Shown: in pieces, positions 29,477 to 33,981 of the stretch
Layout: every line of letters starts with the position of its first letter
How positions within the stretch are numbered: the first letter of the stretch is position 1
Assembly (NCBI GenBank): GCA_035654455.1
Contig: DASRWT010000033.1
Span: 3,975 to 67,974 of the forward strand
DNA: 64,000 nt
Origin: Candidatus Nitrosocosmicus sp.
Lineage (GTDB): Bacteria > Methylomirabilota > Methylomirabilia > Rokubacteriales > CSP1-6
Direction: 5' to 3'
Made by a program: the position numbers and the translations under genes
The notes under the pieces: generated by a model
Database searches by the model: none
What the model was told of the DNA's origin: nothing
Seen by the model: the letters and a program-made list of their open reading frames with translations, nothing else

Positions 29477-30007
29477 GTGACACGCCCGATGCTGATTCTG
29501 GCCCTCGCGCTGGTGGCGGCGCCGGGCGTGTCCGCGCGCGCCGCGGATCCGGCGGCGCAGCTCGATCTGACCCGGCCCGCCCGGGCGCAGTCCGCCAAGC
29601 CCTTCGAGGTGCCGACACCCGACGGCGCCACCCTCACGCTCGCCGATTTTCGCGGCCGCGTGGTGCTCCTCAACTTCTGGGCGACGTGGTGCGGACCCTG
29701 CAAGGAAGAGATGCCGGCGATGGAGCGCCTCTACCAGAAGTTCCGCGAGCAGGGCCTGGTGGTGCTGGCCGTCTCCAACGACTCCGAGGGCTCCACCCGG
29801 AGCGTCGCGCGCTTCGTGAAGGAGAGCGGGTTCACGTTTCCGGTCGGGCTCGATCCGCGGCTGCGGGTGGCGAGTCTCTATGGGGTCCGCGTCTTGCCCG
29901 CCAGCCTGATCATCGACCGGAAGGGCAATATCACCCACATCGCGCTGGGGCCCCGGGAATGGGATCGTCCCGCCGCGCGCCAGCTCTTCGAGTCTCTGCT
30001 GAAATGA
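29477..30007 (+). CDS. TlpA-family thiol:disulfide oxidoreductase (periplasmic thioredoxin-like)
   Basis: Signal peptide (M)TRPMLILALALVAAPGVSARA, then WATWCGPC. GTG 29477 lies 6 nt after TATACT (29465-29470). ATG 29489 is the alternative start. Confidence 0.85.
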   Translation: MTRPMLILALALVAAPGVSARAADPAAQLDLTRPARAQSAKPFEVPTPDGATLTLADFRGRVVLLNFWATWCGPCKEEMPAMERLYQKFREQGLVVLAVSNDSEGSTRSVARFVKESGFTFPVGLDPRLRVASLYGVRVLPASLIIDRKGNITHIALGPREWDRPAARQLFESLLK

Positions 30008-30770: not shown

Positions 30771-31673
30771 ATGCGCGTCCGCGTCCGCGTCCCCGCCACG
30801 TCGGCGAATCTGGGTCCGGGTTTCGACGTGCTGGGGCTGGCCCTGGCGCTGCACAACGAGATCGATGCCGAGGAGGCCGACGGCGTCTCGGTGGCCATCG
30901 AGGGCGAGGGCGCGGGCCGGCTCGAGACGGGCGCGCGCAACGTGGTCGCGCGCGCGGTGCGCATGGCCTTCGAGGCCGCCGGTCGCCCGTTCCGGGGCGT
31001 GGCCCTCCGCTGCGTGAATCGCATCCCGCCCAGCCGCGGCCTGGGCTCGAGCGCGGCGGCGTGGATGGGCGGGCTCGTGGCCGGCAATGCGCTGGCCGGC
31101 GGCGCCCTCTCGCCGGACACCCTGCTCGAGCTGGCCACGCGGGCCGAGGGCCATCCGGACAATGTGGCCGCCGCGCTCCTCGGCGGCCTCACCGTCTCGT
31201 GCGGCACCGGCGACCGAGTGGTCGCCCTGTCGCTGCCGGTGCCGCCCGCGATCCAGTGGGTGGTGCTGATCCCGGAGATCGAGGGCTCGACCAGGGAGGC
31301 CCGCGCGGTGCTGCCCGACTCGGTGTCGCGCGCGGACGCGGTCTTCAACCTCCAGCGCGTGGGCCTGCTGCTCGGCGCGCTCGCCGCGGGGCGGCTCGAT
31401 CTCCTTCCCGCCGCGCTCGATGATCGCCTGCACCAGCCGCAGCGCTGGCGCCTCTTCCCCTGGCTGCCCGCCGCGGTGGCGGCGGCGCGCGAAGCCGGTG
31501 CGCTGGGCTGCGTGCTCAGCGGCGCGGGGCCGTCGCTCCTGGCCCCCGTGGCGGGCCCCGGCGCGGCGGTGGCCGCCGCCATGGAGGCGGCGCTGCGCGA
31601 GAGCGGCACCGGCGGGCGCGCGGTGACGCTCGCGGTGGATGTCCGGGGCGCCACCTGCGAGCCCGTTGCTTGA
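30771..31673 (+). CDS. thrB: homoserine kinase
   Basis: MRVRVRVPATSANLGPGFDVLG and PPSRGLGSSAAA (GHMP kinase motif). ATG 30771 lies 7 nt after TAGAGT (30758-30763). The track start at 30762 is a GTG three codons upstream. Confidence 0.9.
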   Translation: MRVRVRVPATSANLGPGFDVLGLALALHNEIDAEEADGVSVAIEGEGAGRLETGARNVVARAVRMAFEAAGRPFRGVALRCVNRIPPSRGLGSSAAAWMGGLVAGNALAGGALSPDTLLELATRAEGHPDNVAAALLGGLTVSCGTGDRVVALSLPVPPAIQWVVLIPEIEGSTREARAVLPDSVSRADAVFNLQRVGLLLGALAAGRLDLLPAALDDRLHQPQRWRLFPWLPAAVAAAREAGALGCVLSGAGPSLLAPVAGPGAAVAAAMEAALRESGTGGRAVTLAVDVRGATCEPVA

Positions 31674-31750
31674 CTCCCTCTCGGGGGCGGCAGTACCATG
31701 ACCGTGATGAGACGCAATGGAGGCGCCGGCATGCGCGGGAGTGAGCGGCC

Positions 31751-32302
31751 GTGATCAAGAGCGATCGCTGGATCAAGCAGATGGCCCTCGAGAAGGGCAT
31801 GATCAAGCCGTTCGAGGACCGGCAGGTCCGCAAGGGCATGATCTCCTACGGCGTCTCCTCGTACGGCTACGACCTCCGGATCTCCGACGAGTTCAAGATC
31901 TTCACCAATATCAACAACACCCTCGTCGATCCCAAGGCGTTCGATCCCCGGTCCTTCGTGGATTTTCAGGGCGACGTCTGCATCATCCCCCCCAACTCAT
32001 TCGCGCTGGGACGTTCCGTGGAGTACTTCAAGATCCCCCGCAACGTCCTCACCATCTGCGTGGGGAAGTCCACCTATGCGCGCTGCGGTATCATCACCAA
32101 TGTGACGCCCTTCGAGCCGGAGTGGGAAGGCTTCGTGACGCTGGAGATCAGCAACACCACGCCGCTGCCCGCCAAGATCTACGCCAACGAGGGCATCGCC
32201 CAGGTGCTGTTCTTCGAGTCGGACGAGGCGTGCCTCACGTCGTACGCGGATCGGCAGGGGAAGTACCAGGGCCAGCAGGGGATCGTGCTCCCCACCGTCT
32301 AG
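31751..32302 (+). CDS. dcd: dCTP deaminase
   Basis: 183 aa. [25 protein letters not shown] and the [21 protein letters not shown] motifs of Dcd. GTG start. Confidence 0.9.
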
Positions 32303-32345
32303 CCCGGGTTCCGGCCTCACCCGAGGAGGCCAGGAGGTAGGTCCC

Positions 32346-32546
32346 ATGGCAGAGCAGAAGAAGAAGGAAACGAGGCCGAGCAAGCCGGCGGAAGGCGACG
32401 AGTCCGGCGCGGGAAGCGGCGAGCTCGCCAAGAAGGGCAAGAAGCTGAAGGAAGACCTCGACAATCTCCTGGACGAGATCGACGATATCCTCGAGGAGAA
32501 CGCCGAGGAATTCGTGAAGAGCTACGTCCAGCGGGGAGGGGAGTAG
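32346..32546 (+). CDS. pup: prokaryotic ubiquitin-like protein Pup (C-terminal GGE)
   Basis: 66 aa. A disordered Lys/Glu/Gly-rich N-terminus, then DNLLDEIDDILEENAEEFVKSYVQRGGE. This nearly matches the mycobacterial Pup C-terminus as I recall it (DDLLDEIDDVLEENAEDFVRAYVQKGGQ). AGGAGG lies 8 nt upstream. Confidence 0.85.
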   Translation: MAEQKKKETRPSKPAEGDESGAGSGELAKKGKKLKEDLDNLLDEIDDILEENAEEFVKSYVQRGGE

Positions 32547-32548
32547 GG

Positions 32549-32770
32549 GTGCCGATCTACGAATACACGTGCCTGACCTGCGAGCGCGAGTTCGAGAAGC
32601 TGGTCACCGGCGGCGCCGCGGTGGCCTGTCCCGCGTGCGGGGCGGAGCGGGTGATGAAGCGGCTGTCGCTCTTCCGCGCGCGCACCGCGGTGTCCGCGGG
32701 ATCCGCGCCCTCGGGGGAAGCCGCGCCCATGGGTGGCGGGTGCTGCGGCGGGGGCTGCGGGTGTCACTAG
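32549..32770 (+). CDS. FmdB-family zinc-ribbon protein (CxxC_CxxC_SSSS type)
   Basis: MPIYEYTCLTCEREFE...CPACGAERV plus a Cys/Gly-rich tail GGGCCGGGCGCH. GTG start 2 nt after the pup stop, with [11 protein letters not shown]. Confidence 0.8.
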   Translation: MPIYEYTCLTCEREFEKLVTGGAAVACPACGAERVMKRLSLFRARTAVSAGSAPSGEAAPMGGGCCGGGCGCH

Positions 32771-32796
32771 CGATCGCGCGCCGGGCCGGCTAGTCC

Positions 32797-32822
32797 GGGG
32801 CCCCCGCGGGCCCCTTTTTTTC
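32797..32822 (+). terminator. canonical rho-independent terminator
   Basis: GGGGCCC-CCGC-GGGCCCC stem-loop followed directly by TTTTTTTCTTT. It is the only hairpin-plus-long-T-tract terminator I found in the window. Confidence 0.75.
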
Positions 32823-32838
32823 TTTCCGGGAGACGTCC

Positions 32839-33981
32839 ATGCCGAGGACCAGAGTCGAGCCGCGATACGCCATCGAGCACCTGTCCGTGCTGGACAGCGA
32901 TGGCAATCTCGACGAGGCCCTCGATCCCGCGCTCCCCGCCGATGATCTCCAGCGCCTCTACCGCGCCATGTTGCTGGGCCGGCGCCTGGACGAGCGGATG
33001 GTCCGGTTGCAGCGCCAGGGGCGCATCGGCACCTTCGCGCCGATCAAGGGGCAGGAAGCCGCCCAGCTGGGCAGCATTTTCGCGCTCCGGCCCACCGACT
33101 GGATGGTGCCCTCCTTCCGGGAGACGGCCGCCATGCTGTGGCGGGGCTGGCCCATCGAGAAGCTGCTCCTCCTCTACTCGGGATACCTGGAGGGCGGCCA
33201 GCCCGCACCCGACCAGCGAGACCTTCCGGTGTGCATCCCGGTGGCCACGCAGATGCCGCATGCGGTCGGCCTCGCCTACGGAGCCCAGTATCGTGGCGAC
33301 GACGCGGTGGTCATGGCTTACTGCGGCGACGGGGCCACCTCGGAGGGCGACTTCCACGAGGCGCTGAACTTCGCCGGCGTCTGGTCGGTGCCGATTGTCT
33401 TCGTGGTCCAGAACAACCAGTGGGCGATCTCGGTGCCGCTCAAGAAGCAAACGCACTCCGCCACCATCGCCCAGAAGGCCCTCGCCTATGGCTTTCCCGG
33501 CATCCAGGTGGACGGCAACGACGTGCTCGCCACCTATGCCGCCAGCCGGGACGCGGTGGCGCGCGCGCGGGCGGGCGAAGGCCCCACTCTGATCGAGTGC
33601 GTGACCTATCGCCTCGGCGTCCACACCACCGCGGACGATCCCACCAAGTACCGCTCGCAGGAGGAAGTGGCCGCCTGGGAGCGCAAGGATCCGCTCACCC
33701 GCTTCACCGCCTATCTCGAGAAGCGGAACATCGGGGTGGCCGGGGTGGAGGCGGACGTGGATGCCGAGATCGCCGCCGCGGTGGCCCGCTTCGAGAGCGC
33801 GGGCCCGCCGGATCCCCTCGTCATGTTCGACCACGCGTATGGCGCGCCTCCGCTCCAGCTCGAGGCCCAGCGCGCCGAGGTGGCGGCGCGGCTGGCTGCC
33901 GCCGCGCCCGCGCCCGCCGCCGACGGGGCCGCGCCGCCCGCCTCCGTGCCCATGCGCGGGCAGCGGACGACCAGGCGATAG
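32839..33981 (+). CDS. 2-oxoacid (pyruvate/branched-chain) dehydrogenase E1 component, alpha subunit
   Basis: 380 aa. The TPP motif GDGATSEGDFHEALNFA...VQNNQWAIS is typical of heterotetrameric E1 alpha. Confidence 0.9.
   Translation: MPRTRVEPRYAIEHLSVLDSDGNLDEALDPALPADDLQRLYRAMLLGRRLDERMVRLQRQGRIGTFAPIKGQEAAQLGSIFALRPTDWMVPSFRETAAMLWRGWPIEKLLLLYSGYLEGGQPAPDQRDLPVCIPVATQMPHAVGLAYGAQYRGDDAVVMAYCGDGATSEGDFHEALNFAGVWSVPIVFVVQNNQWAISVPLKKQTHSATIAQKALAYGFPGIQVDGNDVLATYAASRDAVARARAGEGPTLIECVTYRLGVHTTADDPTKYRSQEEVAAWERKDPLTRFTAYLEKRNIGVAGVEADVDAEIAAAVARFESAGPPDPLVMFDHAYGAPPLQLEAQRAEVAARLAAAAPAPAADGAAPPASVPMRGQRTTRR

Follow-up and report, generated by a model that had tools for sequence, protein, structure and literature searches.

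Nearly all work on pupylation concerns Actinobacteria, in which pup resides inside the proteasome locus and, in mycobacteria, the pafBC regulators follow pafA. In the actinobacterial system, as represented by Mycobacterium tuberculosis, Pup (Rv2111c) operates together with Dop, PafA, Mpa and PrcBA, and Pups ending in GGQ constitute a variant that requires an extra deamidation step by Dop (PMC8223512). M. tuberculosis also encodes Ruc (Rv0991c), a zinc-ribbon protein whose C-terminus is disordered and which oxidation turns into a chaperone (PMC7448276); its induction depends on the Pup-proteasome system via HrcA (Becker et al., 2020, mBio, PMC7448276). The gene neighbourhoods described for the Ruc family name DnaK, GroEL, ClpB, HrcA and FtsH, with pup and mpa not among them (PMC7448276). 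Selenoproteins of the FmdB family of zinc ribbons have been predicted from Global Ocean Sampling data (Zhang and Gladyshev, 2008, PMC2398784; PMC9312934; PMC13188914), and in these published cases selenocysteine (Sec) occupies the CxxC motif of the ribbon, giving CxxU or UxxU. Here, we describe a locus at which these themes meet. In the Methylomirabilota, uncultured soil and methane-oxidising bacteria, pup is separated from the genes for its enzymes and paired tightly with a gene for a zinc-ribbon protein with a Cys/Sec tail, hereafter znr. The arrangement is a lineage-specific variant of the known Pup system; pup and znr are genuinely paired, the pairing is conserved and apparently unpublished, and its functional meaning, as judged by comparing sequences, should be taken as a lead only and not as a new system. 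The main additions of our analysis are three locus architectures, the persistence of znr in the absence of Pup, and the Cys/Sec tail.

We analysed a 64-kb stretch of DNA (hereafter the window, meaning this whole stretch) that is contained in contig C33 of a 3.08-Mb assembly of 141 contigs; the assembly is 68% complete and represents soil Rokubacteria (Methylomirabilota). The pup ORF of the window is intact and carries a Shine-Dalgarno sequence, AGGAGG, located 8 nt 5' of the ATG. The C-terminus of its product reads ...EENAEEFVKSYVQRGGE, the translation of the ORF ending in ...LEENAEEFVKSYVQRGGE. With 66 aa, the product is within the size of about 60-70 aa typical of Pups, which end in Gly-Gly-Glu or Gly-Gly-Gln. 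Aligned with Pups from species-representative genomes, it was closest to those of MAGs labelled Candidatus Rokubacteria, Rokuibacteriota or Methylomirabilota (78-85% identity); identity amounted to 65-70% within the phylum and to 50-62% against actinobacterial Pups, and the C-terminal half of Pup is invariant throughout the Methylomirabilota. The features of the locus and of the related loci discussed below are collected in the table.

Table. Positions of the genes and signals around pup, of the Pup-proteasome cluster of the same genome and of related genes at other loci.
Feature	Location	Strand	Description
Sigma-70-like promoter candidate	window 31670-31699	+	TTGACT-18-TACCAT, 5' of dcd; 9/12 positions, consensus match alone
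dcd	window 31751-32302	+	dCTP deaminase, 183 aa; Pfam DCD PF22769, 127.9 bits; upstream neighbour of pup
pup	window 32346-32546	+	66 aa, C-terminus QRGGE, then TAG
GGAGG, Shine-Dalgarno-like sequence for znr	window 32535-32539	+	read from sequence, 9 nt before znr GTG
znr	window 32549-32770	+	73 aa, FmdB/Zn_ribbon_8 family; GTG start 2 nt after pup TAG
Intrinsic terminator	window 32797-32822	+	GGGGCCC-CCGC-GGGCCCC, then TTTTTTT; 3' end of unit
E1-alpha dehydrogenase gene	window 32839-33981		downstream neighbour of znr and terminator
mpa	L006 7148-9034 (contig C64)		
dop	L006 9095-10648 (contig C64)		
prcB, then prcA	contig C64		prcB start overlaps dop stop
pafA	L006 12314-13669 (contig C64)		
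glgB and glgX	L006 13686-18102	+	glycogen branching and debranching enzymes; follow pafA
Pup-free znr	L141 1501-1722	+	between transaldolase and 2-hydroxyacid dehydrogenase genes; also L142 (G041, G042, family f6)
TGA-bearing znr homologue	L040 8243-8025	-	
TGA-bearing znr homologue	L051 8358-8570	+	
TGA-bearing znr homologue	L046 2791-3012	+	
TGA-bearing znr homologue	L048 12086-11868	-	
TGA-bearing znr homologue	L034 1670-1879	+	
Extra pup paralogue	L056 7889-8089	-	family f4
Extra pup paralogue	L058 8122-8322	+	family f4
Nitrospirales pup	L114 10007-10204	+	Pup ends QKGGE
Second FmdB-family gene of this genome	L037 1498-1908 (G000:C72)	+	136 aa

The gap between dcd and pup measures 43 nt and contains no promoter match. 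Between positions 29800 and 33300, the candidate directly 5' of dcd is the only promoter-like match, making dcd-pup-znr the likely unit. It represents the probable start of the transcript, which would probably extend, with dcd co-transcribed, to the terminator after znr. The dcd-pup-znr order is seen again in many, not all, relatives, and dcd itself is probably functionally unrelated to pup. At the junction of the two genes that concern us most, the GGAGG of znr is supplied by the Gly-Gly part of the Arg-Gly-Gly-Glu codons of pup, a placement that suggests translational coupling from pup to znr. The terminator has a 7-bp stem, all GC (32797-32814), followed by seven T, and a scan of the whole window returned it as the only perfect-GC-stem hairpin with a T7 run. 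An Rfam scan of positions 31500-33000 at E ≤ 1 gave no match.

A preliminary description of this DNA had presented the gene as a genuine pup whose product ends in GGE, lying between dcd and an FmdB-type gene that starts 2 nt past the pup stop, in a unit closed by the only textbook terminator of the window. The ORFs and the hairpin scan agree with this picture, as do the profile matches of the product, which scored 76.8 bits against Pfam Pup PF05639 (E 2.4e-21, cut-off 27) and 64.7 bits against TIGR03687 (cut-off 41.45). It was also right in placing no pupylation or proteasome genes nearby: neither a Pup-ligase nor a proteasome homologue was found on contig C33, and all matches, none of them in the 64-kb window, were on contig C64. 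However, "stand-alone" does not describe the gene: C64 of the same genome carries mpa, dop, prcB, prcA and pafA as a complete operon in the order mpa-dop-prcB-prcA-pafA, all above the NCBIfam equivalog cut-offs (TIGR03686, TIGR03688, TIGR03689, TIGR03690, TIGR03691). The impression of an orphan arises from the location of the genes for the ligase, depupylase, ATPase and proteasome on another contig. PafA and Dop, whose absence from the genome had been proposed as an argument for a decaying pup, are both encoded on C64. Regarding the terminal Glu, that a GGE end needs no deamidation stands, whereas its supposed peculiarity does not: among 119 distinct pup loci, GGE ends were found in 55/71 Methylomirabilota Pups and in 37/48 Pups of other phyla, and GGE is the commonest end in every phylum sampled. 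Dop, still encoded here, presumably is the depupylase.

Compared with the actinobacterial Pup-proteasome system, the six protein families are all encoded here above curated cut-offs, the window Pup shares the conserved C-terminal helix region and the GG[E/Q] end, and the gene order of the C64 cluster is identical. The differences concern the host, which belongs to the Methylomirabilota and not to the Actinomycetota, the lack of pafBC after pafA, and the position of pup, which is not between dop and prcB but on another contig, coupled to znr. The dop-prcB junction on C64 contains no pup ORF, and the same holds for L150, L151 and L152; a cluster of enzyme and proteasome genes devoid of pup was likewise present in families f1, f4 and f13. 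The place after pafA is taken by the glycogen genes glgB and glgX. The window pup is the single Pup match in this genome (G000). Same-genus genomes that are 99-100% complete carry exactly one pup each, in the dcd-pup-znr-E1 context, and in two near-complete same-genus genomes pup and dop were found on one contig, ~301 and 306 kb apart. The window pup is probably the sole pup of its genome, in which, at 68% completeness, a second copy is possible. Going by family membership, PafA would ligate Pup-GGE straight to substrate lysines, Mpa, with the 20S proteasome, would recognise the tagged substrates, and Dop would detach Pup; the operon elsewhere, its own pup having been lost, would supply these enzymes.

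Pup was present in 41/41 sampled genomes of the order and in 225/251 genomes of the phylum. Across the phylum, znr directly follows pup at 58 of the 71 distinct Methylomirabilota pup loci, compared to 0/48 loci of other phyla, and the gap between the paired genes ranges from -1 to 47 nt (57/58 pairs; 141 nt in the remaining one). The rest of the 71 loci comprise six with a classical dop-pup-prcB order, four extra pup paralogues of family f4, two technical cases (masked bases, contig end) and one with znr 1.8 kb downstream, beyond an inserted gene for an IorA-like oxidoreductase. When a ribbon-domain HMM was applied to the 48 loci from Actinomycetota, Nitrospirota, Myxococcota, Spirochaetota and others, an FmdB-type gene within 10 kb of pup was found at none; most of these loci showed the classical mpa-dop-pup-prcB-prcA-pafA order. 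Nitrospirales resemble our locus in that six sampled loci also have pup away from mpa-dop-prcBA-pafA (L109, L114, L115, L119, L125, L129), but differ in having no zinc-ribbon gene after their unlinked pup. One of the six, L114, reads hppA-pup-relA, with pup between genes for a proton-pumping pyrophosphatase and relA/spoT. Two further arrangements were seen on contigs labelled Saccharibacteria (L085; mpa-dop-pup-pafA without proteasome subunit genes) and Nitrospirae (L087; pafA directly after pup). Several MAG contigs bear taxon names that look doubtful, as for those named Binatia or Deferrimicrobiaceae that show a Rokubacteria-type dcd-pup-znr. An adjacency unique to this genome, according to the preliminary description, would have spoken against a functional link; the 58 of 71 loci show that it is shared. 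Its remark that the coupling of pup with a zinc-ribbon gene is undescribed accords with our literature search, in which no published pup-FmdB pairing was found.

The two partners do, however, occur without each other. The genomes G041 and G042 (family f6, 100% complete) contain no Pup, PafA or Dop and have kept a full-length Cys-tail znr, which indicates that the zinc-ribbon protein is independent of Pup. Conversely, as no znr lies near pup in the other phyla sampled, pupylation is independent of znr. From both observations it follows that znr serves an independent function and that its connection with Pup is accessory at most. An apparent loss of Pup in another genome, G064, proved to be an assembly gap, the cluster being split across two contig ends, and was discarded as evidence.

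The link of znr to the proteasome genes survives locus rearrangement. In the first of three architectures, found in families f1, f3, f4, f5, f8, f9 and f13, the pup-znr pair is remote from the cluster, which itself lacks pup, and is preceded by dcd or moaB. In the second, seen in family f7 and including a single-contig genome, all genes follow each other on one strand as pup-znr-mpa-dop-prcB-prcA-pafA. In the third, that of family f11, znr has stayed with the cluster and pup is in its classical place, giving znr-mpa-dop-pup-prcB-prcA-pafA. One genome of family f12 (G088; L049, L050) contains, besides a classical dop-pup-prcB-prcA-pafA cluster, another pup elsewhere, in the order moaB-pup-[IorA-like 2-oxoacid:ferredoxin oxidoreductase]-znr-radical SAM, and could represent an intermediate state of pup relocation. 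Because G088 carries both arrangements, it suggests that the pup-znr pair arose by duplication of pup and subsequent loss of the cluster copy, an order of events inferred without a rooted species tree. Extra pup paralogues of another kind occur in two genera of family f4 (G033, G035). Their products are 51-60% identical to the window Pup and end in RGGE; the genes are flanked by a sulfite-oxidase-like molybdoenzyme gene on the 5' side and by genes for a DUF6062 protein and a Na+/H+ exchanger on the 3' side, and have no zinc-ribbon gene.

A side result concerns the history of the enzymes. In a tree of Dop and PafA in which the paralogues root each other, and which is subject to thin sampling and possible compositional bias, the Rokubacteriales (f1, f4) grouped with Actinomycetota, and families f7, f11, f12 and f13 with one Nitrospirota sequence; the loci concerned are L006 (G000:C64), L150, L151, L152, L040 and L048. 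The AU test rejected a single Methylomirabilota clade for both proteins (PafA, p = 0.0059; Dop, p = 0.00033). Going by these trees and by the Pup identities given above, the enzyme cluster may have been exchanged by horizontal transfer in one lineage, with the resident pup-znr pair being kept.

The znr product scored above cut-off against both PF09723 Zn_ribbon_8 (49.2 bits) and the FmdB family TIGR02605 (47.8 bits). It begins with MPIYEYTC..C, so that the ribbon motif CxxC-x15-17-CxxC starts at the initiator Met; an alignment of homologues showed the ribbon cysteines C8, C11, C27 and C30 to be invariant and the ribbon to be the most conserved part of the protein. The tail is Gly/Cys-rich, ends in GGGCCGGGCGCH and has conserved cysteines at C65, C70 and C72. 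In an AlphaFold2 model, residues 1-40 reached a pLDDT of ~89, and the tail (41-73) remained at ~50 without secondary structure; as modelled, the protein is a confident zinc ribbon followed by a disordered Gly/Cys tail. Foldseek comparison of this model with the PDB returned generic zinc ribbons only, none at E < 1e-3 (the N-terminal domain of MCM, RNA polymerase subunit P/Rpb12, ribosomal eS27 and HypA), and therefore provided no functional lead. A protein homologue search with the znr product returned only close Rokubacteria relatives.

A further feature was found in the tail of the relatives. Eighteen distinct homologues, from families f3, f7, f8, f9, f11 and f13, contain an in-frame TGA exactly at the C70 column, after which 2-5 conserved codons (e.g. 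G-U-G-T-C-S-H) precede the real stop; in L051 and L052, two such TGAs are present. A G/C-rich hairpin of 5-7 bp begins 14-21 nt past the TGA, in the 3' untranslated region, and covaries, with seven different stem sequences that are all complementary and with loops that are mostly CGUGY or GGU. Moreover, full-length selA and selB were present in 4/4 checked genomes with a TGA-bearing znr. Taken from these sequence features, the TGA probably encodes selenocysteine, in a U-G-x-C motif. The window gene has Cys70 and not Sec at this position, ends with TAG and is not itself a selenoprotein gene. The exchange of Cys for Sec suggests that C70 is a reactive residue, which would fit a redox or metal role. 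These proteins resemble the published FmdB selenoproteins in belonging to TIGR02605 and in showing Cys/Sec exchange among some members; in contrast to the published cases, the Sec of the znr relatives is in the C-terminal tail, with a SECIS-like hairpin 3' of the true stop.

Like Ruc, the znr product is small and has a four-Cys ribbon starting from the initiator Met, a tail that is predicted to be disordered and a gene neighbourhood related to proteostasis. Unlike the hydrophilic tail of Ruc, that of znr is rich in Gly, Cys and Ala and contains three conserved cysteines, one of which is Sec in relatives; also, the neighbours of znr in the window are dcd, pup and the dehydrogenase E1 gene, with no chaperone or heat-shock genes. 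By analogy to Ruc, the ribbon and the Cys/Sec tail point to redox or metal chemistry. We regard it as reasonably probable, considering gene arrangement and homology, that the window contains a functional, probably sole pup and that znr encodes a co-expressed redox- or metal-sensitive accessory that is not part of core pupylation. The assignment as a redox accessory is made because the architecture of Ruc is shared and because the tail Cys alternates with a probable Sec. The gene, apparently translationally coupled to pup and a neighbour of pup or mpa phylum-wide, would supply a protein of the FmdB/Ruc type that is expressed alongside Pup and serves proteostasis under stress, e.g. as a Ruc-like holdase or sensor.

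The persistence of znr in relatives that lack pupylation (G041, G042) and its absence from the pup loci of all other phyla sampled would also be compatible with a purely historical adjacency, pup having landed once 5' of an independent redox- or metal-binding znr to form a tight pair that is hard to break. We consider this possible but on the unlikely side, as znr accompanies Pup-proteasome genes in three architectures, including one in which it lies 5' of mpa with pup elsewhere, and as the pair has been kept while its flanks vary among dcd, moaB and mpa. Going beyond the accessory role favoured above, we tentatively raise, as an idea that is more likely wrong than right, that the Methylomirabilota use the Cys/Sec-tailed protein as an accessory factor, so far overlooked, of their Pup-proteasome system: an adaptor or regulator that would sense redox state and connect oxidative or metal stress with pupylation or with Mpa-dependent degradation. 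Such a factor would explain why znr has remained beside pup or mpa however the locus was rearranged.

Somewhat more doubtful still is that znr encodes a dedicated partner of Pup, be it a protein that binds or shields disordered Pup, an adaptor delivering oxidised clients to PafA or Mpa, a priority substrate of pupylation or a regulator. The tight coupling of the genes, with gaps of -1 to 47 nt, the phylum-wide pairing and the adjacency of znr to mpa in two families would accord with this idea, as would the fact that Ruc expression in M. tuberculosis is tied to the Pup-proteasome via HrcA (PMC7448276), but znr is retained where Pup is absent, as in G041 and G042. If Pup and the zinc-ribbon protein do act together, znr would be the first accessory factor specific to one lineage to be recognised for the Pup-proteasome outside Actinobacteria, and the pair would provide a direct, testable link between redox sensing and protein tagging.

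Two further readings fare much worse. The composition of the tail ending in GGGCCGGGCGCH resembles that of heterocycle peptide precursors, which we take to be part of the TIGR02605 family description, and znr might thus specify the precursor of a ribosomally made, heterocycle-containing peptide. We judge this very improbable because no cyclodehydratase or other maturation genes flank znr; in addition, conservation is highest in the zinc ribbon, and a Cys-to-Sec exchange at one fixed position better fits a reactive site than a processed core. That pup has been orphaned by the loss of pupylation and is now decaying or without function, as the lack of pupylation genes within the 64-kb window might have implied, is scarcely credible and was rejected, given the full enzyme and proteasome set on C64, the invariant C-terminal half of Pup across the phylum, the intact ORF with its Shine-Dalgarno sequence and the single pup, in the same context, of complete same-genus genomes.

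For genome annotation, an "orphan" pup does not imply that pupylation is absent or decaying. Furthermore, many zinc-ribbon homologues in databases end early at a UGA that probably encodes selenocysteine, and gene callers would cut the probable Sec forms of these proteins 3-6 residues short. The genome under study encodes a second FmdB-family protein on contig C72, which has a long acidic low-complexity tail and is nearer to the published description of Ruc than the pup-linked copy.
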